The notes under the pieces are model-generated. The model worked only from the letters and a program-made list of their open reading frames with translations. It was not told where the DNA came from and searched no databases. Below, piece after piece: positions 15,015 through 41,330 of a DNA stretch of 48,259 bases (its first letter is position 1; every line of letters starts with the position of its first letter). Made by a program: the position numbers and the translations under genes. This DNA comes from an uncultured bacterium (lineage in GTDB: Bacteria > CSSED10-310 > CAZUFC01): contig CAZUFC010000061.1 in NCBI GenBank assembly GCA_964619725.1, positions 1 through 48,259 on the forward strand, given 5' to 3'.

Positions 15015-16367
15015 TTACTGATAACAGAACTCGATTATTTCGATATTTGTAGCGACATCGAAACCGCCTGGTTCTGTCGCCAGGGAGTAGAAGTAGAGAC
15101 CGCTGAGTGAGCCGGTATTTGCGGGCCAGGGGAAAGGTCCCAGCAGGTCTTTGTTCCAATCTCCGCCGGCGGGAACGGTAATGGTTTCCTTGGCCAGCGC
15201 TTCTGTCCAGGTCGGATAGAAGAAATACATGCCCACGACTTCGAGTGCGCAGTAAAAATCGACAGTTCTGTTGGAGGTTCCGGTATTTTCGACATTAGCC
15301 TGCAACCTGAAGAGGTCTCCTTCTCCGAAACAGTCGGGAGCGATTTTCGACAGGTTGAGAGCCAGTATCAGTTCGCCTGTGCCTCCGCCTGTGACATGGA
15401 TATCAACGCTGTCGGTTCGGGACATATCCTCATCATCAGTAACGGTCAGGACAGCGGTGTAATCTCCGGCGTTGTCGTAGGTATGTTCGGGATGCTGCTG
15501 ATCGCTGGCGCCGCCGTCGCCGAAATCCCAGTGATAATCGACGCTGCCGCCGTCAGGGTCCGAACCCATACCTTCAAATTGAACCGTCAACGGCGCCGGG
15601 CCGCTTGTCGGTACGGCTCTCGCCGAAGCAAACGGCGGCTGCCCCTCAGCTCCCGAATTGGTATCTGGATGCCAGCCCTCATCCGGTACGCCGTCGCCGT
15701 CGGCATCGAAATCCAGATAATAAATAACGTCCAGAGTGTCATACTCGCCGTCCCCGTTCGGTTCGACCGTCTGCTGAGGCATGGCATCTGCCCCGTCATA
15801 TTCGCGGTAACCCACAAGCGTGCAGACTATACCCATGCTTGCATTCACAGGAAATCCGTCAGGCTGATACAGCACATCCCAGGGAATAGCGCATTCGTAC
15901 ATCATGTTGGGGAGACTGATGTTTTTCTGGATGCTGGAATTCGACGTCCATTCATCATGCGAAAAATCATCATATATTCTGTAGATTCCATGGGTCCCGT
16001 TTCCAGAGGCGTTGACGGAAAAATCCGCGGACCATCCCTCGGCGTAAAAGGATTTGTACCAGCCAATCGTACCCAAATCAGTCGCGCCGGGAGACATAGA
16101 GGCAAAATCCATGTAAAAGTCCACGCTGTTGGCTTCCTCGATAAGAAAGTCTGCTCCGAGATAAAGATTATCGGCATCCCAGGTCACGTACATACGATAT
16201 AATTCATTAAATTCCCAGGCGCAATCGTTTTCTGAATCTTCCCAAATAAGTTCGTCGTCGTCGAAATCGCTGGTATCCCCATCCACAGTGATAGTGTGCC
16301 AGGTCGTCGCCAGTGCAGCCATCGGCATCGCCAGCAACGCGATTAAAAAAATTGTTGCTGCTCGCAT
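15015..16367 (-). CDS. Secreted protein: DOMON/CBM9-like domain + PKD domain + shared C-terminal domain
   Basis: Signal peptide; ITVDGDTSDF...MYVTWDADNLYLG; PKD motifs SGPAPLTVQF, YHWDFGDG, HTYDNAGDYTAVLTVTD; SD AGGAGG before ATG 16367. Confidence 0.8.
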   Translation of the reverse strand: MRAATIFLIALLAMPMAALATTWHTITVDGDTSDFDDDELIWEDSENDCAWEFNELYRMYVTWDADNLYLGADFLIEEANSVDFYMDFASMSPGATDLGTIGWYKSFYAEGWSADFSVNASGNGTHGIYRIYDDFSHDEWTSNSSIQKNISLPNMMYECAIPWDVLYQPDGFPVNASMGIVCTLVGYREYDGADAMPQQTVEPNGDGEYDTLDVIYYLDFDADGDGVPDEGWHPDTNSGAEGQPPFASARAVPTSGPAPLTVQFEGMGSDPDGGSVDYHWDFGDGGASDQQHPEHTYDNAGDYTAVLTVTDDEDMSRTDSVDIHVTGGGTGELILALNLSKIAPDCFGEGDLFRLQANVENTGTSNRTVDFYCALEVVGMYFFYPTWTEALAKETITVPAGGDWNKDLLGPFPWPANTGSLSGLYFYSLATEPGGFDVATNIEIIEFCYQ

Positions 16368-16496
16368 AAAATGTCCTCCTTTAAGAAAAAAAACAATCTT
16401 GTTTCTAAACTTTCTATAAGCCGGCTCATCGCCGCATTTCTCTTTATACAACGTAACGCATCCGAGTTCAACAATACGTCGGAGAAAAACCGCAAA

Positions 16497-18446
16497 TCAT
16501 CCGTTAAAGCCGAATTCCCAGGTGTCGAATTGTCCGATGATCTGAGTGATGCCTTCATCGGTGATGGCTCCCCAGAACAGGAAACCGTCGGCATATCCTG
16601 TACCTGACGGCCAGGAGAATGAATTAAGGACGGCATAGGGCGTCGATCCGGGAAGGACATCGATATTCAGGAAAGAAATCCCTGTGTCTGAGTGGACCCA
16701 ACCGGGCCAGAACCAGTAGTCTCCCGTTCCGATATCCAGGAATACGAAAAGAAGAACATCATTAAGCGTATTATCGGGATTCTCCGTATAGGCCGTCAAG
16801 CGACATTCATCCTGCGGTTCGAAGAAATGAGCCGGCATTTCGAGTCTTACGCCGAGTTCCTGTGCCGGAGTAGGCGAATACTGGGGCGGTGAAGTCGGCG
16901 TTCTGGTCGGCGTTTTAGTAGGAACGTCGCCGGTATGCGTAGGCGTAGGCGTTCTGGTGGGAGTGCGTGTCGGTCCGGTCGGCGATACGGTCGGAGTGGA
17001 CGGTCCGCCTCCAAGCGTGAAAGAGTAAGGCGCTTCACGTGCCGTATTCTCATTAAGGGTTCTCGTGCTGGACGTATCGTCTCCGTACAGATAAGTGGTT
17101 TCATAAACCCCGGGATTCCCTTCAACCGCCAGATAATACTGAATCACATCATCTTCAGAATAGGCGTTCTCCAGCTCTCCGAGAAAATATTCGTTTTCAT
17201 TAGGTTCCGAATCCCAAGCCAGAGCTGCTGAATGCCAGGACTGCTCGGTGGAAGCTTTATAGTACAGCGTGCCTCCCCATATCAGTCCATGCGGATGCCC
17301 GCCGCAATAGACGTAGACAATGCTGTCCGACTCGGACGGATACAGAGGGTTCCTCATGTTGACCGTGGGAGGTTCCTCATTGGTAGGAATATGCCATACG
17401 TTCAGCATAGCGGAGGTGGGCGTGGGCGTTACCGTCGCAGCCGTCGGCGTTCTTGTCGGCGTATAAGTCGGCGTATCCGGCCCCACAGTCGGAAACGGCG
17501 TCGGCGTTATCTCCTCAGGCAACGTATACTCAAAAGCATTATCCCGCGCTTCTTCGGCATCGTCCGTTACTACCGAACTGTCGTCGTCCCCGTAAACATA
17601 CGTCGTGGAATAATATTCCGGATTCCCGTTCATCTCAAGATAATATTCCACCGTGTCGCCTCCCGTATAGCTCTCATTCAGCAAAACAGCCGCCCAGTAT
17701 TCGTTACTGTCGTTGTTCGAATCAAAATCAAAGGCAGCTTCGTTCCATACGCCGCTGCCGACCGCACGAAAATAAAGCGTCCCGCTCCATATCGTCCCGA
17801 TCGGATTCCCTCCACAATAAATGTATACATTCTCCATCCCTTCTTCAGGATGTAAAGGATTGCGCATCGTTACCGACGGCGGCTCCTCGTTCGAAGGAAT
17901 ATGCCAGACATTCATCAACGGCGGGGGAGGCGCCGGCGTCGGAGTCACGTAATCTCCCACTATATATGTAAAAGCATTGTCCTGAGCCGTCTGCTCATCC
18001 GTCGTGGCGTTCGACTCGTCATCCGAGCCGTAAACATACGTGGGATCATATGTTCCCGGATCGCCTTCCATCGCTAAATAATACAGTATCTCATCGCCTG
18101 CCTCGAATACTGAATTGTCTATTACCGCATAAAAATATTCATTGTTCCCCCAGTTCGTGTCCCAAACGAAATCACTCGACGACCATTCCGCATCACCTTC
18201 CTTCTGCCAATACAAAGAACCGCTCCATATCGTACCGATCGGATATCCGCCGCAATAAATAAAAACGCTGTCATAACCTTCCAAAGGCTGAAATGGATTA
18301 CGCATGGTCACGCCCGCAGGCTCCTCGTTCACTGGAATGTGCCATACGTTCATCAATTCGCGTCCCCCGGAAGCTCCTGCAGGAATCATCGTGCCGGCGA
18401 TTGCCAAAACTGCTGAAATAAAAAGCAAATTAGTTTTGAATTTCAT
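16497..18446 (-). CDS. Secreted protein with three ~130-aa repeats, Pro/Thr linkers and shared C-terminal domain
   Basis: NVWHIPxNEEPxxVxMRNP...YCGG.P.G.IW.G.LY...NEY...YYL..EG.P..Y..TY.YG.D occurs three times. Confidence 0.85.
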   Translation of the reverse strand: MKFKTNLLFISAVLAIAGTMIPAGASGGRELMNVWHIPVNEEPAGVTMRNPFQPLEGYDSVFIYCGGYPIGTIWSGSLYWQKEGDAEWSSSDFVWDTNWGNNEYFYAVIDNSVFEAGDEILYYLAMEGDPGTYDPTYVYGSDDESNATTDEQTAQDNAFTYIVGDYVTPTPAPPPPLMNVWHIPSNEEPPSVTMRNPLHPEEGMENVYIYCGGNPIGTIWSGTLYFRAVGSGVWNEAAFDFDSNNDSNEYWAAVLLNESYTGGDTVEYYLEMNGNPEYYSTTYVYGDDDSSVVTDDAEEARDNAFEYTLPEEITPTPFPTVGPDTPTYTPTRTPTAATVTPTPTSAMLNVWHIPTNEEPPTVNMRNPLYPSESDSIVYVYCGGHPHGLIWGGTLYYKASTEQSWHSAALAWDSEPNENEYFLGELENAYSEDDVIQYYLAVEGNPGVYETTYLYGDDTSSTRTLNENTAREAPYSFTLGGGPSTPTVSPTGPTRTPTRTPTPTHTGDVPTKTPTRTPTSPPQYSPTPAQELGVRLEMPAHFFEPQDECRLTAYTENPDNTLNDVLLFVFLDIGTGDYWFWPGWVHSDTGISFLNIDVLPGSTPYAVLNSFSWPSGTGYADGFLFWGAITDEGITQIIGQFDTWEFGFNG

Positions 18447-18728
18447 CTGTTCCCTCTCCTTAAAAAATTACATTTTTACAATAAATTGTATGAATCTAAT
18501 GCTGAGCGACCCTGCAAGCGGCGCCGAATCCTTTTCATCATAAGCCGGCTGTGGAAAAATCCCTTGCCGTTGTTGTTTATTCCATCCTTTACAGACATCC
18601 TGTCGCTCCTTAAAGTCTGCTTTACTAAATTAGAAAACATACCGCCGCATGTCAAATTTTCCAGGCTGATCAAATCCGCAGCTTGTCGCTGCATGAGGGT
18701 AAAATTATCCGTTTTGGACAGAAACGCG

Positions 18729-18830
18729 GGGACTGATCATACCGGTGTTGCACCTCTTTAAAATTTTTGACGGTTTGTTGCTATAATCGGGGTCGGTATC
18801 GGGATCGAAATCGAAACAAAAAAACAGGAA
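18729..18830 (-). repeat. Dispersed repeat family A (hexamer-core element)
   Basis: GGGACTGA...TTTTGACGGTTTGTT...AATCGGGGTCGGTATCGGGATCGAAATCGAAACAAAA; matches 38355-38516. Confidence 0.85.
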
Positions 18831-18988
18831 CCGCAAAAATTACCATTCAAAACGAATTCATCTGACCCGAATACAGGCCGAAACGAAATCCAGGGTCTGA
18901 AATTCCGTGGCCCCGTGCTTAAAGAATAGGTGAATTTTATCATGGACGATCAGGATATGATTGATTTTGGGTAGGGGCTTTAATGATG

Positions 18989-19040
18989 AAGGACAAAGGG
19001 ACCTAAGGGACCTAAGGGACCTAAAGGACAGAAGGGACAC
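18989..19040. repeat. 9-bp tandem repeat AAGGGACCT (about 5-6 units, 3 perfect)
   Basis: aaggaca aagggacct aagggacct aagggacct aaaggacag aagggacac. Confidence 0.9.
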
Positions 19041-19244
19041 TGGGAATATACAATCATTTGTATAAGCAAAAACCGTCATCTGAAAATTAAACGTTTTAAG
19101 GCAGAAATAGAATTTTTGGACTGATCGTATCGGGGCTGCAATTTTTCATAAAACCTTTGACTGATTGAAATTCCCATAAAAAAACCATCCTTGCTCACTA
19201 TTATCTGCTTGACGAACTCACCGCTGTTTTTTCATCCACTGCCG

Positions 19245-19330
19245 TTTATTTCGACACCGGCATCGACCCCCGATTAACAAAACAAACCGCCAAAAGTTTT
19301 GAAAAAGTATAATCCTGGTTTGATCTGTGC
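19245..19330 (+). repeat. Dispersed repeat family A, partial copy
   Basis: TTTCGACACCGGCATCGACCCCCGATT...AACAAACCGCCAAAAGTTTTGAAAAAGTATAATCCTGGTTTGATCTGT. Confidence 0.75.
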
Positions 19331-19381
19331 AAAAAAACAACTAAATCCCCCTATCCAGCCAAAAAACAACCCATTCTTACT

Positions 19382-19420
19382 CCCCCTCTCCATTCATGGA
19401 GAGGGGGCCGGGGGGTGAGG
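19382..19420. repeat. REP-like palindrome with G-rich tail
   Basis: Perfect inverted repeat CCCCCTCTCCAT-TC-ATGGAGAGGGGG followed by CCGGGGGGTGAGG. Confidence 0.85.
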
Positions 19421-19450
19421 TCGTTCCACCAACTTTTATTGATAAAAATG

Positions 19451-19593
19451 GGCATTGATCAAAAATGAGTCTTTTGATGTTACAATTCTTCCGAATTTCC
19501 CATCATTTTTTTTCGATTTCGATGTCGCCCCCGATTACTTAAACAAACCGTCAAACGTTTTGAACAAAGTGTTAGCCCGGTTTGACCAGTCCC
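19451..19593 (+). repeat. Dispersed repeat family A, full copy with short core
   Basis: GGCATTGATCAAAAA...GTCTTTTGA...CCATCATTTT...TTCGATTTCGA...CCCGATTA...AACAAACCGTCAAA...GTTTGACCAGTCCC. Confidence 0.88.
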
Positions 19594-19597
19594 GCAA

Positions 19598-21271: not shown

Positions 21272-21418
21272 GATTTGTCCGTGTTCAAGGGCTTGTCATG
21301 TAAAGATAGAATAAAACCGCCGCAAGGTTTTGCACGCAAAGGACGCGGGCGACAGTTACGATTTTATACTGAATTCATCTTGTGTTTAAAATAACGATCT
21401 TCGCCATTGGAGTCCCTA

Positions 21419-23485
21419 TCACAGAATGGCGGTAATTGTATCAAATAATTCATCATGAATCTCGACCAGTCTGATGTTCCTGCATAATTCAGACAATCTT
21501 TCCAGCCTGGCTGCTTCAATCAGGTTGGTCTGTTTGAGTTCATCGGGAAGTAGAAACCGGAAGGGGCTGAAGGAAAAGAATTTTTCATAGCGCTTTCCGT
21601 TACGCGTCAATTCGTGTTCAAAATCCATCCGCTGAAGAGCAAAATCATCAGCCGTGAAAAGGTTTTCGGATATCCAGGCTATGCCTTTACCGTCGTCAAA
21701 TTGTTTTTTATCTTCGCTGATCCTTTTTTTCATAAGAACAGCCATTATTTCGCTCATGAACGAGCCCCAGAAATGGAAATAGAAATGTAGATTCTTGAAG
21801 GCTTTATAAAGTATGACATAAGGTTCGTCAAAATAGGGCATCAATCTTTTTTTGATGAGTTGAGCTGAATCGAATTCCAGTTGTGGACCGGATTGAGCGG
21901 TAAAGGTCAAGGCGGCGCTTCCAGCGTTGAGCATCTGCCTGACCATGACGCAGTTGCTTCTGACGGAAACGACTTTCCATTTACGCCCACCCAGAAGAAT
22001 GGAGGAGCCGGGTTCGGGGGGAACATCTTCGCATTCGCCGATTTTTTTTCCGTCATCCTGACTGCATATGTCCATGGAGCTTCCGGGAGGGTTAAGGCTT
22101 ATATTGCTGTAAATCCGGTGTTTTTCGATCATGTCGCCCAGTTTTGATCCTATATGGAAAACTTGGCTGTGGGAAGAAGCCAGATATCCCAGACTGATAA
22201 GGTGATCGAGTATGCGATCTCCCACGAAGGGTTCGATTTCATGTAAATAGGGCCGCATGATTCGACTCAGTCCCTGGCGTGTGGCTCCTTTTCGTCTTGT
22301 CTGCTTCATGTATGAAAAGATTTGCTGAACGGCCGTTCCGTATCGCGGATACCGGTCCTTTTTTTCTACGCGGCCCTCCAGCGATTCCCGCAGCATTATT
22401 TCCAGCATTAACCGTTCGCCGTCGTTCCTGTGCAATCCGAAGGCCAGAGAATAATCACCTTTGCGGCGGCATCCCCGTCCAATTCTTTGGAGAAAAGAAG
22501 AGACCGTCCACGGCGGTCCGAAAAGGCCTACAGCTTCAATGTCTCCGATGTCGATGCCCAGTTCGAGCGTCATCGTTGCTGCGCAAAGTCCTATTCGATC
22601 ATTGTTCATTTTATATTCAACGCGCTCCCTTTCTTCCTTTTTTAAACTTGCGTGGTGCACGTATACCCTGGAATAATAAGGCGGCTTGTTTAAAACACGC
22701 GCCAGCAACTCGCAATCCGATCTCGAATTACAGAAGAAAAGAGCTTTTTGAATTCTTCTCTGCTTCAGTTCATTAATCAAGTTTGCCGCATAACCGGGCA
22801 GGGCCGCATCAATAAAATGAAACTCTATATCTCTTTTCGAGGGGTCTGATATCAGCACAGGATCAGAGAAATAACGGATCGCTGTTTCCCGGGGGTCTGA
22901 GGTCGTAGCCGTCAAGGCTACATACTGTAATTCATCCTTTGCTCCGGAGTATTTTCTGATGGCTTCCAGTCTTGCAGTCAAACCGAAGAGCTGATCGCCC
23001 CGCGGGGTGTTGTCCAGCAAATGCAGCTCATCGATTATAATGCTTTTTACCGTTCCGAAAGCCCAGGGATATTTTGTGAACATTGAATCGAGAGATTCCG
23101 GCGTAGTTATCAGCAAAGTCGGCGGGTTTTCAGGGTCGAATCCCCGGGAGTAGTCGCCTGTTCTTCGGGATAAAGTGGCGGGCATTCTGTCGAAAGGCGT
23201 CGACAATCTTTTTAACGCGTCGTTTACCAGGGCTCTGGTGGGGGATATATACAGAATAGAAAGATTACGGTAATCTTTCCGGTCCAGGTTCTCAAGCAAT
23301 GGAGCGACTGCAGCTTCCGTTTTGCCGCTGGCTGTTTTTGAGCTGATGAAAACGTTTTTTCCGGCCAGAACTTCGGGGATCGTCGACAATTGTATGGAAG
23401 TAAAGCGTCCGAAGCGGGTGAAAAAGGCGTGCCAGGTTGTGGGCAAAAGCCTTTTTATACGAGCATGTTCCTTGATATCAGCCAT
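21419..23485 (-). CDS. Lhr-like SF2 DExH helicase (BrxHI-like)
   Basis: FTSIQ, TASGKTEAA, SPTRAL, RRTGD, TTPESL, DELH, TAT, HHASL, TLELGIDIGD, QRIGR. Confidence 0.9.
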   Translation of the reverse strand: MADIKEHARIKRLLPTTWHAFFTRFGRFTSIQLSTIPEVLAGKNVFISSKTASGKTEAAVAPLLENLDRKDYRNLSILYISPTRALVNDALKRLSTPFDRMPATLSRRTGDYSRGFDPENPPTLLITTPESLDSMFTKYPWAFGTVKSIIIDELHLLDNTPRGDQLFGLTARLEAIRKYSGAKDELQYVALTATTSDPRETAIRYFSDPVLISDPSKRDIEFHFIDAALPGYAANLINELKQRRIQKALFFCNSRSDCELLARVLNKPPYYSRVYVHHASLKKEERERVEYKMNNDRIGLCAATMTLELGIDIGDIEAVGLFGPPWTVSSFLQRIGRGCRRKGDYSLAFGLHRNDGERLMLEIMLRESLEGRVEKKDRYPRYGTAVQQIFSYMKQTRRKGATRQGLSRIMRPYLHEIEPFVGDRILDHLISLGYLASSHSQVFHIGSKLGDMIEKHRIYSNISLNPPGSSMDICSQDDGKKIGECEDVPPEPGSSILLGGRKWKVVSVRSNCVMVRQMLNAGSAALTFTAQSGPQLEFDSAQLIKKRLMPYFDEPYVILYKAFKNLHFYFHFWGSFMSEIMAVLMKKRISEDKKQFDDGKGIAWISENLFTADDFALQRMDFEHELTRNGKRYEKFFSFSPFRFLLPDELKQTNLIEAARLERLSELCRNIRLVEIHDELFDTITAIL

Positions 23486-23495: not shown

Positions 23496-24992
23496 TTACA
23501 CCAGCAGTATCTTCCTTGATTCCTCTATGATGGTTGAAGCGTCTTGCCTCCTGTTGTGTCTGATTCTGTCCAGTATTTCCACTAGTATTCTGATGGCGTC
23601 CCGGAGAGACAGGTAATCCCTTGAATACAACGAAAAGATAAGGGGAACCAGGTCTGCTTCGAATTTTTCGGGAATATCATATTTTAAATTATAGGCTGAT
23701 TTGTATATCTCCTGCAACCTCCGAGTGAGACTTTCAAAACCGTCGAAACTGAACTCGCTCAACTCTATCAGCCATTCTCCCGGCAGTTGCGAAATGACCA
23801 TCGGGGGCGCTTCACGGGGCGTAAACGCCATGATCAGCATTATGTGAGGTTCGTTTTTGTAGATGTAAGGAAGCGGCCTGCGCTGAGTTCTGTGAAGACT
23901 CCATTCCATGAAGGGACTTAAATCAGGTCCCAGCGTCGAATAGATCATGCCTTTGAAAAAACTGTCCGCAGTCATTCGGCGATAACCCGACAACATGTTC
24001 AGACTTTCAGCTTCATCGATTAAAAGCATCAGACCCGCGTACCCGATTTTTTTAACCAGATGGCCCAGGCCGTTTAAAATGTATGAATAAATATTACCTG
24101 CGTTACAATAATCATACAGCGACGGAAACTTGTTGATCGACGATCCGGCGCTCTGCATAACCAAAGGATTTCCTTCAATCCAGTCCTGCCAGGTTACGGC
24201 GTCCTCCGGATCAACATCCGCTCTTGCAGCATACAGCGCTTTCGATAAATATTCGTGCCGGTTGTCTCCCTGACGGAAAAAATTAAAAATTTCATCGTCT
24301 TTCGCTGCCTTCTGAATAATTTCGCTTAATGAAGTTTCCTTTATCCCCGGCGCTGTAATAGAACGCATAAGACTGTGATATATTCGCTTAGGCCTGTTCG
24401 GCTGTATCTCAAATATATCCAACTCTGTTTTCGCTACTAAGTAATTCTGTTTCAATGCCTTTTGTTTCGAATATTCCAGAAAATGGCTTTTTCCCGTGCC
24501 GTACTCCCCTTCAATGACCCGAACGGCCCCGCCGTCGCTATTCGTTTCTTCAAACGCTTCGTTCAACTGCTCCTCTTCGTCCCTGCGGTGAAAAGTGAAA
24601 AGTTCTATGTCATCGGGGGCCACAAGTCCGAGCCGCAAGGCTTCAATCATTCTTCTATTGCGGAAATTTCCGGCATCCTGTACTGAAACTGCCGGCACGA
24701 AATACTGGCCGCTTTCCGGGTCTCCAGCCTTCCGCTTTTTTTTACCGCCTGAGAATCTGAACCTTAAACCGCTCTTTTCCGCAAATTCCGTGGGAAACTC
24801 AGGGCATTCTTCTGGTACTTCGATCTCTTCAAAAGAAATATCCGCTTTAGACACCCAAATGGTAAACCTGCTGAATGAAATCTGTACCTCGCGGCCGTTT
24901 CGCCGTGAATCGATGATCTCTCCACGGCCGTAAAGAGGATGATAAACATGCCTTCCGACATGCTCTCTTTGAGACCTTAACCAGGAACGCAT
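23496..24992 (-). CDS. BrxD/DUF2791-like P-loop ATPase with N-terminal Tudor/SH3-like module
   Basis: IEALRLGLV, Walker A GEYGTGKSH, GYAGLMLLIDEAE; N-terminal VYHPLYGRGEII. Confidence 0.8.
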   Translation of the reverse strand: MRSWLRSQREHVGRHVYHPLYGRGEIIDSRRNGREVQISFSRFTIWVSKADISFEEIEVPEECPEFPTEFAEKSGLRFRFSGGKKKRKAGDPESGQYFVPAVSVQDAGNFRNRRMIEALRLGLVAPDDIELFTFHRRDEEEQLNEAFEETNSDGGAVRVIEGEYGTGKSHFLEYSKQKALKQNYLVAKTELDIFEIQPNRPKRIYHSLMRSITAPGIKETSLSEIIQKAAKDDEIFNFFRQGDNRHEYLSKALYAARADVDPEDAVTWQDWIEGNPLVMQSAGSSINKFPSLYDYCNAGNIYSYILNGLGHLVKKIGYAGLMLLIDEAESLNMLSGYRRMTADSFFKGMIYSTLGPDLSPFMEWSLHRTQRRPLPYIYKNEPHIMLIMAFTPREAPPMVISQLPGEWLIELSEFSFDGFESLTRRLQEIYKSAYNLKYDIPEKFEADLVPLIFSLYSRDYLSLRDAIRILVEILDRIRHNRRQDASTIIEESRKILLV

Positions 24993-24995: not shown

Positions 24996-26288
24996 TTACC
25001 ATTCTCCTTCCGCTTCTTCTACGTCGCTCTGAGCCAATCCCAGGACCACGCCGTGACAGAGTTCATCCAGTTCATTGTCATTCAAGGGACTATTTTTGGC
25101 CCTGAGCAGATGTAAAGCCTCAATAAGCAGCTTGACGAAAATCCTTCTGTGACTTATATCCAGCACCTGGTCCAGAGTCCGATCAGCGAGTTTCGGGACC
25201 AGCTCTTCCGCTTCAAGCCCCTCTAAATCAACGGCCATGGCTATTTTATAAATTTCCAGCAATTTTAATCCGATTTCCGTCAACAACGGTTTCCCGGAAT
25301 TTTCCAGGCTTTCCAGGTTTATCTCAACGCTGCTGGGATTCACTGAAGAAAAAGGATAAGTTATCAGCAATCGCTGCCTTAAGGCCTCATAATCCTTTAT
25401 CTCCTCCTTGAAACTGTTGGGTACCGCATAACAGAAAAGACTTCCCGGTAAAGTGCTGTGACCGCACTCGTCCACCACCTGTCGCAGATTATCGTAAGCG
25501 ATCTTTTTGGATTTCGAGCCGGATATGCTTGCCTGACGCTCTCCTTCGTCGAACAACAGCGCCAGACCGTTGTAACCTATCTCCCTGACCCATTGACACA
25601 ACGACCTGATCATTCGAAATGCCGTCGTTTTGTCTATTCTCTCGAATATGTAAAGCTCGTTCATCCTTTTTTTGTCTACCGGTTCCCCCTTCAACCAGGC
25701 CTGCAACAGGTTGAAACGATCGTCATCGCCGCTTTGAAGCGCTTTAAATATTTCCTTGACGGCCTGCTTAAAAGAACTGGACTCGATTCGGCGTATTCCC
25801 CGCAGATATGTCCTTACCTGTTCTTCAAGCATCGCAGGATCGCCGCCTCCCTGGGCTTTGAATTCCTCTATCATCTTCTCCCACCAGTTTTCAACGAAAA
25901 TATCAATTCCCTTCATCGACGTATCGAAAAACTTCGGTTTTTCCGGCGGTTCAGTCAAATTTGCCGCTATCTCCTTGTAAACCAACTCCAGCTTGTCGAA
26001 AGGACAATCCCGCGGATTCAATGAAACCAGGCTCACTACGTATCCGCATTCCCAGGCCATTTCACGCAGGCAGTAGAGAAAATGAGTCTTACCAGCTCCG
26101 TAATCGCCTACCAGTAATTTGAAAACGGATAATCCTTCCGTCAGCAATCCGTCGAAATACTCGGCACGAAGCGTCTCCAGCAAAGTATCTATTCCCGCGC
26201 TGAAGAATCCGGCGCCGTGTTCGGGCGGCTCGCCGCCCGATCCAACCTTTTCTATGATCGCTCGCGCTTCTGATTGAGTTATATCCAT
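24996..26288 (-). CDS. BrxD/DUF2791-like P-loop ATPase
   Basis: FKLLVGDYGAGKTHFL, VYKEIAANL, WLKGE, GYNGLALLFDEGE, NLRQVVD, YEALRQRL. Confidence 0.85.
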   Translation of the reverse strand: MDITQSEARAIIEKVGSGGEPPEHGAGFFSAGIDTLLETLRAEYFDGLLTEGLSVFKLLVGDYGAGKTHFLYCLREMAWECGYVVSLVSLNPRDCPFDKLELVYKEIAANLTEPPEKPKFFDTSMKGIDIFVENWWEKMIEEFKAQGGGDPAMLEEQVRTYLRGIRRIESSSFKQAVKEIFKALQSGDDDRFNLLQAWLKGEPVDKKRMNELYIFERIDKTTAFRMIRSLCQWVREIGYNGLALLFDEGERQASISGSKSKKIAYDNLRQVVDECGHSTLPGSLFCYAVPNSFKEEIKDYEALRQRLLITYPFSSVNPSSVEINLESLENSGKPLLTEIGLKLLEIYKIAMAVDLEGLEAEELVPKLADRTLDQVLDISHRRIFVKLLIEALHLLRAKNSPLNDNELDELCHGVVLGLAQSDVEEAEGEW

Positions 26289-26289
26289 A

Positions 26290-30554: not shown

Positions 30555-31598
30555 TCAGTCGTTTCCTGGCCCGAATCCCCAGGAAATTAAAGAGGTTTGA
30601 CCGATGATGTCGAAATTATTGCGGCCTGCTACAGCCGAAATGAATTTTATCCCTGAAACCGCATCCGATACTTCCGGCCAAACAAAAGAAAGTATATCCT
30701 GAAAATGGTATCCCTTTCTCAAATAGGTCGGATACTTGTCCATCTGCCGACCCCAGGACGGATAGAACCAGAATTCGCCGTATACTTCCAGCAGAACGTA
30801 AAGATCGACGTCTGTCGTCGTTCCTTCATTTCCCATTAATACCTTTAAGTCAAACGGGTCGCCAGGAACGAAATACAGGCGGTTCAAGCGAAGCTTAACG
30901 CCCGTAAAAGGCTCCGGCGTAAAAGTGGGCGGCGACGTGTAATATGGCGTCGGAGTATGAGTAGGCGTCGGAGTCGATTCATCAGGCGGCGTTTCTGTGG
31001 GAGCGGGCGAATAAGTCGGAGTAGGCGGTTCGCCGACATACGCCTCTATGCATATCGTCGCATAGTCCTCTGCAAAAGAGTATTGTTCTGTTCCCTCCGC
31101 GTGGTCGCCTTCATAATAATAGTAATCGGAACTGTGGTTGCGATAACCGCAATCCAGATCGGCAGCATCGGCATATCCCGTTATACCTATGTAATCCCCG
31201 GCCTGCACTCCCTCAAGATTTACGCTGAGCGTCTGCAGGCCCGCAGTCGATTCCAGCTCCCCGCTCTCCGCTATCAGGGCAAACGTCGTTCCTTGAACCC
31301 TGCGTAATACCTTCACCCTGTAACATACCCCGTCATGACCGAAATTGGTCCTTATCTGCGTTATCATACCGGAAGAGGGCGCCGTCGAATCACATGCTAT
31401 CAGCGTTATGACGTCCGCAATAGGTGTGTCGGCCGTTGCAGCCGTCAGTCCTCCGAACCATCCGTCACGGCCTCTCTTACCCGTCCGGGCTTCCACTTGC
31501 GACGAAAAAATCCATATTGATGAAAATGCCGTGATGATTATCATCACAATCAGATGCGCTTTCCTTCCCAATGCTTCACAAACGCCTCCCGGTCTCAT
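30555..31598 (-). CDS. Secreted protein with unknown beta-rich domain, Pro/Thr linker and shared C-terminal domain
   Basis: AGGAGG SD before ATG 31598; signal peptide ending VEA; PT linker; C-terminal domain homologous to three other proteins in the window. Confidence 0.75.
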   Translation of the reverse strand: MRPGGVCEALGRKAHLIVMIIITAFSSIWIFSSQVEARTGKRGRDGWFGGLTAATADTPIADVITLIACDSTAPSSGMITQIRTNFGHDGVCYRVKVLRRVQGTTFALIAESGELESTAGLQTLSVNLEGVQAGDYIGITGYADAADLDCGYRNHSSDYYYYEGDHAEGTEQYSFAEDYATICIEAYVGEPPTPTYSPAPTETPPDESTPTPTHTPTPYYTSPPTFTPEPFTGVKLRLNRLYFVPGDPFDLKVLMGNEGTTTDVDLYVLLEVYGEFWFYPSWGRQMDKYPTYLRKGYHFQDILSFVWPEVSDAVSGIKFISAVAGRNNFDIIGQTSLISWGFGPGND

Positions 31599-31714
31599 GC
31601 CCCTCGTCCTCCTGATGTTAATTCGATTAACTTCATGTTCTCTCTGCAAAATTCCTGAATGATTCACCTTTCCTATTATAACCGCTTCTCCTGCCCGCAG
31701 CAAGAAAGCTTTCC

Positions 31715-31742
31715 TTGACAATTCAAATACTTCTGATAAAGT
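31715..31742 (+). promoter_or_regulatory. Sigma-70 promoter of the yicC operon
   Basis: TTGACA-16 bp-TAAAGT with extended TG; GGAGG SD follows. Confidence 0.65.
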
Positions 31743-33622: not shown

Positions 33623-33853
33623 ATGGATTTAAAATTGATTGAAGAAGTTATCCAGCGCTCAGGAAGCCGCTATCGCGCGGTCCTTATGGCCGCGAGAAGG
33701 GCTAAACAAATTCAAAAAGGTTCGCAGCCTACAGTGGAGTCCAAAGGCAAGAAACCAATCGCTACGGCGATGGAGGAAATTTCGGCCGATAAGGTCAAAC
33801 CGCTGGAAGAATCAGAAATCAGTCCTGCCGACGATTTCAACATCATGATATAA
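33623..33853 (+). CDS. rpoZ: RNA polymerase omega subunit
   Basis: SRYRAVLMAARRAKQI, KPIATAMEEI; canonical position; SD AAGGAG. Confidence 0.93.
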   Translation: MDLKLIEEVIQRSGSRYRAVLMAARRAKQIQKGSQPTVESKGKKPIATAMEEISADKVKPLEESEISPADDFNIMI

Positions 33854-34013
33854 GGTTCCGTATTTTTATATCGGAGGACGAGCTTAAGACGGTCATTCTT
33901 TAAAGAGCCGGTGCGAGGACAGTAAACTTTGAAAACGGGTTTGCAGGCGCTCTGCCGGGGGAATTGGTCAGAAGAAGGTAGAAGCGATATTCCGGCATTA
34001 GCGTTGTTTTAAT

Positions 34014-35249: not shown

Positions 35250-35281
35250 GTCACGGGCGTCATGGAAGACTAAAGTATATG

Positions 35282-35328
35282 TTTCGGGGGTTTGCGAAGG
35301 GCTCTGACCCCCTCGGGAACCCCCGAAA
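35282..35328. repeat. Inverted repeat enclosing the REP-like core; possible bidirectional terminator
   Basis: TTTCGGGGGTT...AACCCCCGAAA flanking GGGCTCTGACCCC, between convergent genes. Confidence 0.7.
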
Positions 35329-35386
35329 AATCTAGTTATTTTTATCGCCTGCCCGCGTTGACTTGCCGAAGAATGTCTTTACGGCG

Positions 35387-36808
35387 CTATCTGTTTTTTC
35401 GCATGATCAGAAGTCCGAAAACGAAAATAAGCAGGCTGATGCCTATGGGAGCCAGGGCTGGTACCGGCGGTCCTTCCTGGACCACGGCGCGAATACAGGC
35501 ATCGTAGGGGAATCCTCCCAGGCTTCCGTGGCCGAAACGCATCCAACTGCCTGCGGCATTGTTCATGCTGAGCCAGGATTCATCGGAGCAGGCGCCGATG
35601 GAATCGAGCGTGAGTGCGAAGCCTCCGCTGCTGACCGTTGACCTCATAGCGATATAATAATCGTCTCCTGCGGGAACCTGTATGGGCGGGTCGACGTCAA
35701 TGGAATACAATCCGGCCTTGTCCGCGTATCCCGTTATGGTCGACCCCAATTGATTGTAAAATGTTGAGGCGTTGTCGGTTCCGGAACGGTCGTCGTAAAT
35801 AATAATTTCATAATCCATCTGGTCGTGAATTGTGAAAAACTCGATCCGGTGAATCGTAACATTACTCAGGCCACTGTAGAAATGCTGGGCTGACCAGGTG
35901 GTGTTGGCCCCGCTTTGTCCGAAAGACTGCACGCATCCGTGGTCGTCATGGCACATAAGCTTTAATCCCTGGTCTTCCAGAGGTTCTTCTACTTCGGTCA
36001 ATGCCACGGCTCCCACGCCTATATTCATGGAATCATAGGAAATATAAAAGTATCCATCATCGCCCCAGTCGGCGCCCCAGGAATTTTTTACGATCCAGCC
36101 TGGTGAGCCGCTTCCCAGAAGATTGTCATCGTAACCTACGATAACGACGGCGTGATTGCTGGAACTTGAAGGATAACCCGTAATGACGAATGAACCGTCG
36201 TATGATGTGAATCCTGACCAAGCTCCGGTATCGACGCCGCAATACACAGGACCATGATTTATGAGAGCGTTCTGGATCGACGCCGTTGAATCGTCGCAAT
36301 ATTTGAACGAACGGAGCCTGTAAGGACGGGATGTGCAGCTCCAGATACAACCTGGATCAGAGCTGTCGCCGGGCCACGGAGCGCATGTCTCCTCTGCCTG
36401 ACCGAATGTGGTCAAATGGCTGGAGGACATCCAGATATTGCCGAACGTACCGCAGTTGGCGCTTCGGGGTCCGCATTCCCTCAAATAGATTTCAGAAAAA
36501 TCCTCCACCGGATTCCCCGGCCAGAAATAACGGATTTTTCCTTCCAGCGCCCCCATGGTCGCAAATATCCAGCAGTTGTCGCACGGCGCCTGATCTTCTA
36601 CGGGAGTCACGCCCATCGGAGTCGTCGTACGGTAATCCAGTCCCCCGCGCTTCATGGTTTTCAGGTATACATTTACTGGATCACGTTTTTCATAAGGACT
36701 GAAAATAGGACTGTCGTTCAATATCGGACCGCTGGAAAATTCAGCCGCTTCAGCGCCCGATATGCCCATTAATGCCGACAACATGATTAAGCATACTAAT
36801 TTTTTCAC
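35387..36808 (-). CDS. Secreted C1A (papain-family) peptidase with lectin-like domain and IPTL-CTERM-like anchor
   Basis: QAPCDNCWIF, NHAVVIVGY, KNSWGADWGDDGY; tail VPALAPIG-TM-RKNR; GTG start with AAGGAGG. Confidence 0.9.
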   Translation of the reverse strand: MKKLVCLIMLSALMGISGAEAAEFSSGPILNDSPIFSPYEKRDPVNVYLKTMKRGGLDYRTTTPMGVTPVEDQAPCDNCWIFATMGALEGKIRYFWPGNPVEDFSEIYLRECGPRSANCGTFGNIWMSSSHLTTFGQAEETCAPWPGDSSDPGCIWSCTSRPYRLRSFKYCDDSTASIQNALINHGPVYCGVDTGAWSGFTSYDGSFVITGYPSSSSNHAVVIVGYDDNLLGSGSPGWIVKNSWGADWGDDGYFYISYDSMNIGVGAVALTEVEEPLEDQGLKLMCHDDHGCVQSFGQSGANTTWSAQHFYSGLSNVTIHRIEFFTIHDQMDYEIIIYDDRSGTDNASTFYNQLGSTITGYADKAGLYSIDVDPPIQVPAGDDYYIAMRSTVSSGGFALTLDSIGACSDESWLSMNNAAGSWMRFGHGSLGGFPYDACIRAVVQEGPPVPALAPIGISLLIFVFGLLIMRKNR

Positions 36809-37291
36809 GTCGCCTCCTTTTCTAACGAATGAAAGAATAAATCGATTCCTTTACCCAGTGCGGACGCTTCCTGCAAATCCGCATAAATAAAACATTTAAA
36901 AGGTTTTTCCCGGAATGATCAATCAACACTCTCACCACTCCCGCAAACTGAGGCTCGCCGGTTTTCTTCGTAATTCCGTCGATTGCTCATACCGCTTACT
37001 TCCTCGTTCCCTGCCCGGCACAAAATACCAAAAAAATCGCAACTCCAGGGCTCTCAAACCGCGATTTCACAGGACGATCAAATGGAGACGATGATCCCTT
37101 CCAAAAAGGGGGAAACCGACTGTTTCGGCTTCCCCGCATCATTTATTATGACTCCCCTTAACTTCCCTTTCGCATATCAAAATAAAGGCGCCCTGAGTCC
37201 GGGCACATATCTTTTACTACTGATAAAAACTCTAAAGTCAAAAAAAAGCGAAAAAAAATTTCAGGTTTGAAATAAAATATGTTTCACGAGA

Positions 37292-38332
37292 CTAAAGAAT
37301 GAGCCGGAATCCCAGGACGGCGGTGAATGCCGTCAGGAGGATGAGAAACCTGCCGAGTTGTGGGTGGATTCTTCTGGTGAGTTTTTTGAAAGGATGTTTC
37401 GCAAACTGGGCGTAACCTGTGGTCAAGGCCGACAGAGCGCCGAGGACTGCAACGGCTCCGAGGATCGAATGAAGTTTTCTGAAATGGCCGGTTTCGGATA
37501 TTATCACCATATAAAAGGCAATGATCAATCCCGTCAGGGAAAAGATGTTGGCCAGTATTCCTGCAGTTTTGTGCGCTTTCAGTCGCCATTTTTTCTTTCC
37601 GGCATAGCGGATGATGATGAAACCGGCGACCATGGCCAGGAGAGAGGACGACATAAGGAAAGCATGATAAGGCCATAACAGGATTGACGTTTTGCCTGTC
37701 GTTTCACCGGTGCGGAAATTTATTGTGCCCTTGCCCATGGCGGAATGATCCGATTCAGGGTCGTCATTCAAACCGAGCGCCCAGATTATACTAAGGGGTT
37801 CCGAACCGGAGACGGCTTTATCCCATTGATCGCCGGTGTCCCGTTTTCTTTTGAATTCAATCACCGTAGTGAAAAAATCTTCTCTGCCGGCGTATTCGAT
37901 TATGTCATGCGTTCCTCCCAATTGTTCATCCGGCGGATGGGGCCCTTTTTCGCCGACGGACCAGCTATCCAGGACCGTCGTTTCGCTGTCGTCTGCAACC
38001 CATCCCACAATGATATCGGCATCCTTCATTTTGACTTCAGGGTCTAAGCCCAGCCCAATCCATCCGATATCTTCGGCTGAAATGCCGAAAAAGACGAAAT
38101 CCCCTTCCAGACGACCGTAAAGTTTGTAATTGCCGTCGAAAAAAACGGCTTCAAATTCATATTCGTCCGGATGTATATGACCGTCCACGGCTGATACCTG
38201 CGAGCCTGTCTCTGCATGACCTTCGCTGCCTTCCTCCGCATGCGCAATCGGAAATAAAAGCATCAGGATCAACCAGAAAACGGATAACGTTCGCACTGCA
38301 ATCGATGCTCCTGCAATTCCGCTGTTTTTCAT
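37292..38332 (-). CDS. DOMON domain + cytochrome b561
   Basis: GWIGLG..MKDADIIVGW, IEFKRKRDTGD, IIWALG..H; four TM helices each with His (YHA, AHK, LHS, IHP). The longer ORF's N-terminus is translated repeat DNA. Confidence 0.85.
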   Translation of the reverse strand: MKNSGIAGASIAVRTLSVFWLILMLLFPIAHAEEGSEGHAETGSQVSAVDGHIHPDEYEFEAVFFDGNYKLYGRLEGDFVFFGISAEDIGWIGLGLDPEVKMKDADIIVGWVADDSETTVLDSWSVGEKGPHPPDEQLGGTHDIIEYAGREDFFTTVIEFKRKRDTGDQWDKAVSGSEPLSIIWALGLNDDPESDHSAMGKGTINFRTGETTGKTSILLWPYHAFLMSSSLLAMVAGFIIIRYAGKKKWRLKAHKTAGILANIFSLTGLIIAFYMVIISETGHFRKLHSILGAVAVLGALSALTTGYAQFAKHPFKKLTRRIHPQLGRFLILLTAFTAVLGFRLIL

Positions 38333-38354
38333 AAAGATATCCTTTCCAAATTTC

Positions 38355-38516
38355 GGGACTGAACAAACTGGGGTTACATTTCTTTGAAAACTTTTGACAG
38401 TTTGTTCCAATAATCGGGGTCGGTATCGGTATCGGAATCGTGGGTCGAAATCAAAACAAAATGATGGAAGATTCCGTCGAATTGTAAACTCAAAAGACCT
38501 GTTTTTGATCAATGCC
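38355..38516 (-). repeat. Dispersed repeat family A, full copy
   Basis: Reverse complement aligns end to end with 19451-19593 and 41421-41662. Confidence 0.88.
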
Positions 38517-38567
38517 TTTTTTATCAGAATTGAGGTTCTTCTCAGCAGGTAAAAATGAGGGCCTCGA

Positions 38568-39092
38568 TTAGTTTTGCTTGCGATACTTGTTGTGACATGA
38601 GCTGCATGTTGAAGTCATTTTTTTGTACGACATCAGCATATTCTCATCTTCCTTGTTTTCTGCGGCTTTCGCTATGCCTTCGGCATGTTTCCCCAGCTCT
38701 TCGGCATACTTTTTAAAATCTTCAACATCATCTTTATTTCTTTCCGGCTGGAAATCGGATATTCGATCAGAGAGCATTTTTATCATGTCTGCGGCTTTTC
38801 GTATTTTGGTTTTATCAGGCGATCTGAAATTTTTCTTGATCATTTGGACCAGATCAGCCGTCGATTCCATGAAGTGATGCAGGTCATAGGGCTTTTTTTC
38901 AACAGCGCTTTTGCAATCCGTGCATCCGGAGGATTCAAACGAGACGCAGGGCATGGATTCATCCGGACAGACATAAAGGAAGCGCCCGTCATCGTCTTTA
39001 TCGCTTTTTTTTTCATCAGCGACAACCATAACGCCGGCGATCAGTGCAATAACCGCTAGAATCGAAAAGATTGTTATCGTTCTGTTGTTCAT
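38568..39092 (-). CDS. Exported class II cytochrome c (c'-like) with N-terminal Cys-rich module
   Basis: C-terminal CSSCHNKYR, helical body, LHHFM; YVCP-x4-PC-x7-CxxC after the signal peptide; SD AAGGAG. Confidence 0.8.
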   Translation of the reverse strand: MNNRTITIFSILAVIALIAGVMVVADEKKSDKDDDGRFLYVCPDESMPCVSFESSGCTDCKSAVEKKPYDLHHFMESTADLVQMIKKNFRSPDKTKIRKAADMIKMLSDRISDFQPERNKDDVEDFKKYAEELGKHAEGIAKAAENKEDENMLMSYKKMTSTCSSCHNKYRKQN

Positions 39093-39188
39093 GTTTTTCT
39101 CCTTTGAAGACGATTGATATTTTAAAGTTTGAACGGCAGTATCGACATTTCGAAATAAAACGTGAATTCTGTGCGCTCAAGGTATACA

Positions 39189-41330
39189 TCAGTCATCAGA
39201 CCATCCGAACGTCCACTGGTCCATTTCGCCGAAGAGCATCGTAATGTTCTGATCGGTCATGGCCGCGTAGAACATCATGCCGTCGGCGGTTCCCGCATTG
39301 GGCGGCCAGTTGAAGGGTTCAATGACCTGCAGTTCCTGCTGTCCCGGAGCGATTTCGACGGAATAGAAATCGACGTCTGAGCCGAAACCGGGGGCGAATA
39401 AATATTCCCCGAAAACATCGAGTATGACGAACAGCGGTTTTGTTCCGTACCCGGCATCATCGGGATTGCAGACGGTTACTTTCAATTCGCAATTTTCTCC
39501 TGTTTGAAAGTCGTCATCCGGCATCCATATCGTAACGCCTAGAACGGAACATACAGGCGTTTCAGTGGGGAGGAGCGTCGGGTTCGGCGTCAATGTGGGA
39601 ACGTTTGTCGGCAGCAGCGTGGGAGTAAAAGAGGGAGTAACGGCTGTTGGAATGTTTGTTGGAGAGGCAGTCGGCATGTCCGTCGGCGTATGAGTCGGGA
39701 AAGAGCTGGGGGTTTCTGTCGGCCAGGGAGTAGGAGTGTCGGGAATGGATGTGGGGGTCGGCGTATCCGGCATGACGCCTGTATTGAGATAAACGCGTAT
39801 GTGCGATCCGGCGAATCCTGCGGCCAGATCGGGAAAACCGTCGCCGTTCATATCGCCCCAGGCTACGGTGTTGCACATGGAACTTACGGCGCTCCAGGGG
39901 ATGACCCAGGATGGATCGGTTTCCAAGGTTCCGTCAATATTTTCATGCACCCAGACCAGATCGTAATTAGAATCACCCGTACTGCCGACGGCCAAGTCCA
40001 GATCGCCGTCATTGTCCATATCGATCCAATCCAGGTCGGAACAACTCGGTTCGCTATCGTCCGAAGCCCAGCAAGCCTCCGTATTCAATACGCCGTCAAT
40101 ATTCTCATAGAGCATGGAGGGCACGTCGCGGCCGCCGACGAACAGGTCCAGGTCGCCGTCTCCATCCACGTCAGCCCAGGAAACCCCTTTTTCACGACGG
40201 TCTCCGGCGCCGCTTACGGTGAAAGAGGGAATGCTTTCCAGGGTGGTACCGGTATCATGATACACTTTTGCATTGCCGTGATCAACTGATACCGCAAAGT
40301 CCAGGTCCTGAGATACTTCCGCTTCAACAGAAACATTATCCGTTCCGGCGGGCGGCGGCGACTGAAAAACGATCCAGGCTTCCCTCAGATGAACGCAGTA
40401 TGCCGTCACCGGCGTTGAATCCACTGTGACCTCCAGTATGCTGTGCAGCGGCGCATAACCCAGCCGGAAGATATTTCTGTATCCGTCGCCCGAAAAAACG
40501 AAAAACTCCTGCGATATTCCGTCTTCATCATAATCGCCCAGAGCCCCGGCCATGTTTTGAGCCTCATCCGCAGACGTCCAGGAAGCCGACGAAGGCGGGA
40601 TTCCCGTCGTGTTCCCGTATAAATGATTCGGCTTATCCGGGTCCGTATATACGCCCTGATTCACAATGGCGGCGTCGAGATAACCCTCGCCCGTCACATC
40701 TCCGAATGACACGGACAATGAAAAGAAATCCTCGACGCTGCTCCAGGAAGGCGTTTGCTCCAGGCCCTCCGCATCCTGAAAATAAATGACGTTGCTGGAG
40801 CCGTTGCTGTTGACGACCGCGGCATCGGGATATCCGTTCAGGTCCAGATCACCCAGCGCTACACCCGTCGACCACACCTCATCCGTGGATTCCCAGCTCG
40901 ATGTCGTCTCCAATTCGCCTCCTTCATTAAACCATACCCGGGTCTGTTCAGGCCGGGCCGGATATCCGCCTTCATAATGAGCCGTCACTAAATCCAGATC
41001 GCCATCATTATCCATGTCCGCCCATCTGACGCTTCCCACGGCATACTCTTCAGCCGACATCCACGAAGGCGATGTCTCCAGGGGCACGCTTGGACTGAAC
41101 AAGCCCGGCGTCAAATTCTCCGGTATTTCATATTCCAACGCCCGGCTCATGTCAGACGCTGCATCCAACCGCATACCCTTTAACGCTGCTCTCTGCCTTA
41201 AAATTACCAATTCCTGCTGCGAAATGTCTTTATATTCCCGAATCACGGCTCCGGCTTCCGCCATACACAAAATTAAAAATAAACTCAAACATGCGCTAAG
41301 ACATGCGCTTTTTCTGTACATTGAAATCAT
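39189..41330 (-). CDS. Secreted FG-GAP/VCBS-repeat protein with Pro/Thr linker and shared C-terminal domain
   Basis: Seven (W/L/F)xDxDxDGxxDL units with LETxPSWxS linkers; SD GGAGG. Confidence 0.88.
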   Translation of the reverse strand: MISMYRKSACLSACLSLFLILCMAEAGAVIREYKDISQQELVILRQRAALKGMRLDAASDMSRALEYEIPENLTPGLFSPSVPLETSPSWMSAEEYAVGSVRWADMDNDGDLDLVTAHYEGGYPARPEQTRVWFNEGGELETTSSWESTDEVWSTGVALGDLDLNGYPDAAVVNSNGSSNVIYFQDAEGLEQTPSWSSVEDFFSLSVSFGDVTGEGYLDAAIVNQGVYTDPDKPNHLYGNTTGIPPSSASWTSADEAQNMAGALGDYDEDGISQEFFVFSGDGYRNIFRLGYAPLHSILEVTVDSTPVTAYCVHLREAWIVFQSPPPAGTDNVSVEAEVSQDLDFAVSVDHGNAKVYHDTGTTLESIPSFTVSGAGDRREKGVSWADVDGDGDLDLFVGGRDVPSMLYENIDGVLNTEACWASDDSEPSCSDLDWIDMDNDGDLDLAVGSTGDSNYDLVWVHENIDGTLETDPSWVIPWSAVSSMCNTVAWGDMNGDGFPDLAAGFAGSHIRVYLNTGVMPDTPTPTSIPDTPTPWPTETPSSFPTHTPTDMPTASPTNIPTAVTPSFTPTLLPTNVPTLTPNPTLLPTETPVCSVLGVTIWMPDDDFQTGENCELKVTVCNPDDAGYGTKPLFVILDVFGEYLFAPGFGSDVDFYSVEIAPGQQELQVIEPFNWPPNAGTADGMMFYAAMTDQNITMLFGEMDQWTFGWSDD

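Follow-up and report, generated by a model that had tools for sequence, protein, structure and literature searches.

A large, uncatalogued family of terminal beta-sandwich domains on exported proteins of the candidate phylum CSSED10-310, and its possible role in surface docking

A 48,259-nucleotide stretch of DNA from an uncultured bacterium of the candidate phylum CSSED10-310 (contig CAZUFC010000061.1 of assembly GCA_964619725.1; this whole stretch is referred to below as the window) carries four genes for secreted proteins with different passengers and homologous C-terminal domains of about 115 residues. The domain belongs to one large uncatalogued family, acidic and aromatic-rich, with the fold of an eight-strand Ig-like beta-sandwich. 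The window belongs to a metagenome-assembled genome of 9.17 Mb and 344 contigs, whose completeness is 90.9% and contamination 6.5%. All four C-terminal stretches are present on the minus strand, where they form the last ~115 residues of the open reading frames (ORFs) at 15015-16451, 16497-18446, 30555-31721 and 39189-41330 (P0001 to P0004). The features of these genes are as follows.

15018-15374, minus strand: P0001 terminal beta-sandwich domain (profile E 8e-49, four-way alignment)
15015-16367, minus strand: P0001 gene, with signal peptide, unassigned N-terminal region, PKD, short Gly linker and terminal domain (translation)
16503-16862, minus strand: P0002 terminal beta-sandwich domain (profile E 7e-51, four-way alignment)
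16860-17012, minus strand: P0002 Pro/Thr-rich linker ahead of the domain (translation)
16497-18446, minus strand: P0002 gene, with signal peptide, three ~150-residue repeats, Pro/Thr linkers and terminal domain (translation)
30570-30917, minus strand: P0003 terminal beta-sandwich domain (profile E 3e-49, four-way alignment)
30909-31028, minus strand: P0003 Pro/Thr-rich linker ahead of the domain (translation)
30555-31721, minus strand: P0003 gene, with signal peptide, passenger, Pro/Thr linker and terminal domain (translation)
39195-39545, minus strand: P0004 terminal beta-sandwich domain, the copy used for modelling (profile E 5e-54, AlphaFold2)
39555-39770, minus strand: P0004 Pro/Thr-rich linker of 72 residues ahead of the domain (translation)
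39189-41330, minus strand: P0004 gene, with signal peptide, FG-GAP/VCBS repeats, Pro/Thr linker and terminal domain (translation)

The ORF of P0001 extends to 16451, its likely start being the Met at 16367; the true start of P0003 is probably the Met at 31598 or 31544. As reported in a preliminary description of the window, signal peptides were visible in all four translations and a Pro/Thr linker preceded the domain in three, P0001 being the one without. The passengers were also largely as described: Pfam matched PKD_4 in P0001 (residues 273-352, E 1e-18) and FG-GAP_3 in P0004 (E 2e-30), a triple repeat was visible in P0002, and the passengers of P0002 and P0003 had no Pfam or NCBIfam family. 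The DOMON domain that had been ascribed to P0001 was not recovered by Pfam at E ≤ 1. Each of the three P0002 repeats, separated by Pro/Thr linkers, starts with LMNVWHIP.NEEP..V.MRNP.

Alignment of the four terminal stretches gave 129 columns, 13 of them invariant, with 22-28% identity to the first sequence. The profile made from these four sequences scored its own stretches at E 5e-54 to 8e-49 and found at least 150 further copies elsewhere in this genome. The similarity is therefore far beyond chance, and the homology of the four domains that had been proposed stands, together with the motif, which agrees with the genome-wide consensus.

The census was based on 53,820 stop-to-stop ORFs, each of 60 residues or more, which were extracted from the genome and searched iteratively with hmmsearch. 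Successive rounds counted 218, 228 and 228 domains, giving 228 copies in 227 ORFs, so that the expectation of many copies genome-wide was borne out; by arithmetic, the four copies in the 48 kb of the window compare with 1.2 expected at the genome-wide density. The consensus reads F.PGD.F.L....N......LDVyG.YwFwPsW...D....F.WP....G..F..A......G..D..eFGy. Two subtypes had been proposed from the window copies (GVxxxMP...C against LxLN...F); this division was abandoned, since average-linkage clustering of 215 full-length copies placed 206 in one group, including all four from the window. In a public protein library (1.84 billion representatives, 50%-identity clusters), 2409 clusters matched at E ≤ 1e-3 and 1940 at E ≤ 1e-10, mostly with the domain at the C-terminus.

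The position of the domain was strongly biased in this genome. Between the domain envelope and the stop codon there were at most 5 residues in 211 of the 228 copies, 6-15 in 7, 16-40 in 5 and more than 40 in 5, and three of the ten copies ending furthest from the stop were short, weak fragments. After the last aligned residue there were 0-5 residues in 200 of 215 copies, which typically ended in aromatic-Gly/Ser-aromatic followed by an acidic residue or Gly-Pro. Copies in other positions were nevertheless found. The domain lies right behind the leader in protein C153 (residues 33-153 of 914), which has other domains and then an FGE domain downstream, and in protein C40 (residues 30-137 of 868), where the region after it, read by eye, looks like a metallophosphatase/5'-nucleotidase followed by a CARDB-like end. 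Internal copies occur in three proteins, C179 (between two FGE domains), C104 and C112 (two copies), and at least six N-terminal copies were seen among loci from other genomes of the phylum. The C-terminal position, earlier suspected to be strict, is thus strongly preferred but not obligatory.

Sequence databases were searched with a set of 61 aligned members of the domain family. No consistent Pfam or NCBIfam match was obtained, the best single matches being at E 0.02-0.05, each in 1 of the 61, and no family of either database lies on the tails of the four window proteins. A strong match to a catalogued family, which would have spoken against a new domain, was thus not found in either collection. 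Dockerin (PF00404), SLH (PF00395) and cohesin (PF00963) were absent from the Pfam matches at E ≤ 1 of both the four proteins and the 61 members; among the members there was likewise no match to an NCBIfam CTERM model or to a Pfam family of carbohydrate-binding modules (CBMs). The models for the C-terminal domain (CTD) of the type IX secretion system (T9SS), type A (Por_Secre_tail, TIGR04183/PF18962) and type B (TIGR04131/PF13585), matched 0 of the 61 members at E ≤ 1 in Pfam and NCBIfam and none of the four full proteins, and TIGR04183 found nothing in the whole genome in a search run without positive control. These results agree with the original remark that the domain, which has no transmembrane segment, is not recognisable as a T9SS CTD, SLH, dockerin or PEP-CTERM. 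A profile search of PDB sequences gave nothing at E ≤ 10, and the ESM Atlas yielded unnamed clusters only. No published description of the domain was found in literature searches.

The 61-row alignment was also used to model the P0004 copy with AlphaFold2, which predicted eight strands in an Ig-like beta-sandwich with a pLDDT of 97.4 and a pTM of 0.88. Judging by strand order alone, one pole of the model appears to hold both termini together with three conserved loops, N-x-G, F-x-P-x-W and F-x-W-P. Foldseek against the PDB returned generic Ig-like or E-set matches only, 9 of them at E ≤ 1e-3; the neighbours included CARDB (3idu, TM-score 0.56; 2kl6, TM-score 0.60), RhoGDI, TRAP-alpha, NPC2/Der p 2 (ML lipid-binding) and the chitin-binding GbpA, with a weak match to a porphyran-binding CBM (8wae, TM-score 0.54).

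CARDB (PF07705) offers the nearest solved shape, with F-x-x-G-D and N-x-G turns similarly placed. Membership of that family was rejected: the CARDB model matched 0 of the 61 members at E ≤ 1, and hhalign of the domain against the 24 CARDB domains of this genome gave a probability of 0.9%, leaving a likeness of fold alone. The domain family is therefore separate from CARDB though CARDB-like in shape, and it also differs in use, since CARDB domains in this genome are internal repeats of giant proteins and not a terminal module.

Export of the carriers was assessed with two home-made signal-peptide rules applied to 202 carriers, with 2826 other ORFs of at least 350 residues for comparison. The strict rule was met by 146 carriers against 913 of the other ORFs, and the looser one by 177 carriers; a lipobox-like motif was present in 9, and many carriers failing the strict rule show plain leaders by eye. 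No transmembrane-like segment beyond the leader was seen in 198 of the 202. All carriers thus appear to be Sec-exported, in keeping with the co-occurrence of domain and signal peptide noticed in the window. The linker is common as well: in 136 of 212 copies, Pro and Thr together account for 35% or more of the 40-residue segment just before the domain, a share reached by 18 of 603 control windows taken from these proteins.

Passengers were surveyed further in 39 public relatives. Among them were S8, C25, M6, C13 and M14 peptidases, peptidylarginine deiminase, FGE-sulfatase and AhpC/TSA redoxins, together with beta-helix, BNR, Kelch and PQQ propeller proteins. In these relatives the tail lay outside any precomputed Pfam domain, and the NCBI names follow the passenger or read 'hypothetical'.

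The domain itself has a median net charge of -13, a pI below 5 in 212 of 215 copies and an F+W+Y content of 17%, compared with 10% genome-wide. Domain and passengers share an acidic, Lys/Arg-poor make-up, with 1.2-1.7% Lys against 5.4% genome-wide. The passengers of domain-ended proteins and of those with the membrane-type tag described below contain 1.5-1.7% Lys and 2.5-3.1% Arg, against 5.4% each genome-wide. Acidity and Lys depletion, though real in the domain, were therefore rejected as domain-specific traits; the depletion of Lys and Arg is a property of the exoproteome. Possible reasons are life in saline or alkaline surroundings, or protection against the proteases that the organism itself makes.

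A second kind of C-terminal ending was recognised in this genome, consisting of a Pro/Thr linker, the motif [IV]P[AST][LFVM]xxxG, a hydrophobic helix and a basic tail, with the consensus TPTPxPP[IV]P[AS][LFVM]xxxG[IL][LI][LI]L...[RK]. This membrane-type tag is present on 116 of the 3635 ORFs of at least 300 residues. One example lies in the window, and its tag had no NCBIfam CTERM model match:

35387-36808, minus strand: comparison gene for an exported papain-family peptidase with a lectin-like domain, ending in the tag PPVPALAPIG, a hydrophobic helix and RKNR at about 35390-35524 (Peptidase_C1 E 3e-30, C-terminal scan)

Comparison of the two classes of protein revealed an exchange of endings. 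With the low-complexity filter on, 82 of the 202 domain carriers had a membrane-tagged protein whose passenger they matched at E ≤ 1e-10; for 67 of the 202, the match to such a paralogue spanned 200 residues or more and reached E ≤ 1e-20. Identity in the best pairs is 55-62% over 583-1056 residues, the highest value being 62% over 583. One pair is made up of two ORFs with Peptidase_C25 matches (C39 and C92), of which one has the domain as its ending and the other has the tag. Since paralogues occur with either ending, the domain and the membrane-type tag are interchangeable on homologous passengers, both behind Pro/Thr stalks. This exchange and the few N-terminal and internal copies are new results of the analysis.

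The membrane-type tag resembles known sorting signals. PEP-CTERM and IPTL-CTERM (TIGR04174) take the same slot as the domain, closing exported proteins after a Pro/Thr linker, and such endings are exchanged with it on paralogues here; the domain differs in being a 115-residue soluble all-beta fold with neither transmembrane helix nor basic tail, and so it cannot serve an intramembrane sortase as substrate in the manner of these tags. Among 34 long ORFs at C25-peptidase loci taken from genomes of the phylum that lack the domain, 6 have a C-terminal VP[TA]LS-like motif followed by a hydrophobic helix and a basic tail. When seven C-termini from one of these genomes (G001) were compared with NCBIfam, one passed the IPTL-CTERM cut-off and three weakly matched an exosortase-target model. 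According to one published report (PMC8671808), an IPTL-CTERM tag is carried by an immunolocalised S-layer protein of a diderm bacterium. Mutual exclusion of exosortase tags and the domain between genomes was considered and rejected, as the present genome carries both.

The membrane-type tag also ends a number of giant ORFs of 4,000-12,092 residues, at C34:1691-37966 (plus strand) and also on C8, C9, C71, C132, C31, C94 and C60, in which CARDB domains are repeated about every 2.9 kb. These are candidate surface scaffolds, with nothing linking them to the domain.

The distribution of the domain was determined in 14 genomes of CSSED10-310 that are 60-96% complete. It was found in 11 of them, with 58 to at least 150 matches each, and was absent from the other three (87-96% complete; all of their 32-41 first-look candidates were scored). 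A few per cent of all proteins in CSSED10-310 carry the domain. Among 387 genomes from other phyla, searched at a threshold of 1e-3, weak relatives (E 1e-8 to 1e-11) were found in four. Three of these (G053, G221 and G371) belong to one family, with ~50 first-look candidates each, 11 of them scored; the fourth is G057.

The outside relatives, at ten loci (L066-L075), are C-terminal in 8 ORFs, one with an extra tandem copy, and stand behind the signal peptide in 2. They keep the LDVY..L...G...F.P.W core without the F.WP motif, have no Pfam coverage and occur in multiple copies on exported proteins. A protein with the order signal peptide, domain, PKD and FGE is present in one outside lineage, so that a layout in which the domain follows the signal peptide and FGE comes later was seen in two phyla. 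The domain is thus nearly lineage-specific.

The machinery that might serve the domain was searched for in the same genomes. A genome announcement of CSSED10-310 predicts Gram-negative cells and does not mention the domain (PMC8248873), and diderm markers were found here: Omp85 with 6 matches in this genome and secretins in 14/14 phylum genomes. The T9SS translocon family SprA_N was found in 0 of the 14, this genome included, while 28 of 107 other genomes matched in the same search, which served as positive control; SprA_N was also absent from the outside carriers G053 and G057, both covered by that search. The domain therefore works independently of T9SS, and organisms that are diderm and lack SprA need some other route across the outer membrane.

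Secretin, Peptidase_C25 and Exosortase_EpsH were considered as machinery of the domain and rejected, since none tracks it positively across the 14 genomes and all are also present in domain-free ones. Peptidase_C25 (the gingipain family) is strongly expanded despite the lack of T9SS, with 26 matches here, 8-16 in most relatives and at least one in all 14 genomes. Exosortase_EpsH was found as a short form (an ORF of ~190 residues) in all 14, and at full length only in two domain-free genomes. The short exosortase-like ORF of this genome, at C134:13003-13455, could be the sortase of the [IV]P[AS] membrane tag.

Neighbouring genes were examined as well: for 217 carrier genes, the two nearest genes on either side were clustered with BLAST and tested for enrichment. 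The top family had 20 of its 108 members beside carriers (p=0.003, uncorrected over 9 families), an enrichment that is unconvincing, and so no candidate partner emerged from it. The members of this exported family (for example C10:103520-104845, C116:23771-24841 and C101:26065-27801) have an N-terminal 'P.QINYQG' domain followed by collagen-like G-x-x or Cys-rich repeats. No translocon, peptidase, receptor or reader was found among the machinery candidates and carrier neighbours.

The preliminary description had left the function between a secretion tag and a docking module. Neither a machine nor a receptor was found; of the two readings, docking or anchoring is better supported by the new evidence than a tag for secretion alone. 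The reading we prefer, to which we give an even chance, is that the domain is a T9SS-independent, non-covalent module for docking to or retention at the surface. Once its protein has been exported by Sec, the folded domain would attach it, by non-covalent binding, to some shared component of the envelope or surface, and its role for the carriers would be that of the [IV]P[AS][LF] membrane tag for their paralogues in the same genome. Three features favour docking: the domain takes the place of an anchor, it can also stand at the N-terminus or internally, and the stalk that bears it is flexible; copies that are internal or behind a signal peptide fit a binding module better than a terminal translocation signal. 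Three elements of this reading are inferred: binding itself, an envelope component as the ligand, and retention of the domain in place of cleavage. Dockerin and SLH domains are shared terminal modules of this kind, mostly C-terminal, linked through Pro/Thr segments to varied secreted enzymes and docking them non-covalently to the surface. The present domain is similar to them in layout and unrelated in fold, a beta-sandwich as against a Ca-binding helical pair or the SLH fold, and no cohesin-like partner was identified.

Several points weigh against docking. No receptor or ligand was identified, and nothing shows binding. Similarity to solved structures is weak and of a generic kind (Foldseek E 4e-4 at best, TM-score 0.56-0.60) and indicates no ligand. 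The exchange of endings demonstrates a shared architectural slot, not a shared destination, and the signal-peptide rules have high background rates of 32% and 52%. In addition, 93% of the copies end within 5 residues of the stop, as a C-terminal export signal would, a bias stronger than expected for a freely placed binding module. The passenger set (C25, S8, M6, peptidylarginine deiminase) fits an export tag equally well.

These last points lead to the best surviving alternative, in which the domain is the recognition tag of an undescribed machine for outer-membrane translocation, and perhaps attachment, analogous to the T9SS CTD but of separate origin and maybe cleaved. C25 gingipain-like, S8 and M6 peptidases and peptidylarginine deiminase resemble T9SS cargo. 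Like the domain, the T9SS CTD is an Ig-like sandwich of comparable size (~100 residues) at the extreme C-terminus of unrelated Sec-exported proteins; in both cases the cargo proteins of a genome number tens to hundreds, the distribution among lineages is all-or-none, and the passengers include C25, S8 and peptidylarginine deiminase. The conserved aromatic-Gly/Ser-aromatic end and the need for another outer-membrane route without SprA also speak for such a tag. The domain differs from the T9SS CTD in its N-terminal and internal copies, in having Pro/Thr stalks as a rule and in the absence of SprA from the 14 genomes. The copies in such positions, seen here, in other genomes of the phylum and in distant relatives, also count against such an export tag, as do the lack of a candidate machine, with secretins, C25 and the short exosortase-like gene shared by domain-free genomes, and the lack of a gene family clearly enriched beside carriers. 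An export signal of this kind seems to us less likely than docking, of which it is the main rival.

Less probable still is that the domain is a CBM-like module binding an environmental polymer, or a structural end-cap with no role in localisation. A Pro/Thr linker followed by a terminal beta-sandwich is the classical layout of an enzyme with its CBM, the Foldseek matches to GbpA and the porphyran-binding CBM point in the same direction, and there are many hydrolases among the passengers and a position that is not strictly terminal. However, the domain is also carried by non-enzymes or proteins without a polymer substrate (FG-GAP/VCBS proteins, AhpC/TSA redoxins, PQQ propellers and FGE); it is present in 58 to at least 150 copies in some genomes and in none in others; and its exchange with a membrane-anchor tag in 67 of 202 carriers would not be expected of a substrate-binding module. 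Self-assembly, in which the domains of different proteins bind each other and knit the exoproteome into a coat or matrix, is very improbable: the presence of one aromatic-rich module on a few per cent of the proteome is circumstantial, the median net charge disfavours self-association without counter-ions, and no data point to oligomers.

More broadly, and only tentatively, the domain may mark the cargo of an undescribed system by which diderm bacteria target proteins to the envelope. This system would be evolutionarily independent of T9SS, with its own reader (a channel, a shuttle or an attachment enzyme), and would serve ~3% of the CSSED10-310 proteome and have diverged relatives in at least two other lineages. 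Bacteria direct proteins to their surface by means of shared terminal tags, and each such tag found so far (LPXTG, PEP-CTERM and the T9SS CTD) has led to a dedicated machine.

Other genes of the window were also noted. Between 19598 and 30418 on the minus strand, a row of genes encodes a DEAD/DEAH helicase (21419-23485), BrxC/BrxD-like ATPases (23496-24992 and 24996-26288), proteins of 301 and 557 residues belonging to no family, and a 1068-residue HEAT/TPR protein; the row looks like a defence-type island. At 37292-38512, also on the minus strand and between two genes for exported proteins, lies a gene for a DOMON domain fused to a cytochrome b561 membrane domain.

The phylum CSSED10-310 thus marks a few per cent of its proteins, including a large protease arsenal, with a folded module that no database describes. 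With the profile of the domain, an exported or surface location can be annotated for thousands of metagenomic proteins now called 'hypothetical', and the domain provides a handle for finding its partner by phylogenetic profiling or pull-downs. Its exchange with the membrane-type tag is a natural example, within one genome, of two ways of anchoring that can replace each other on the same passengers.

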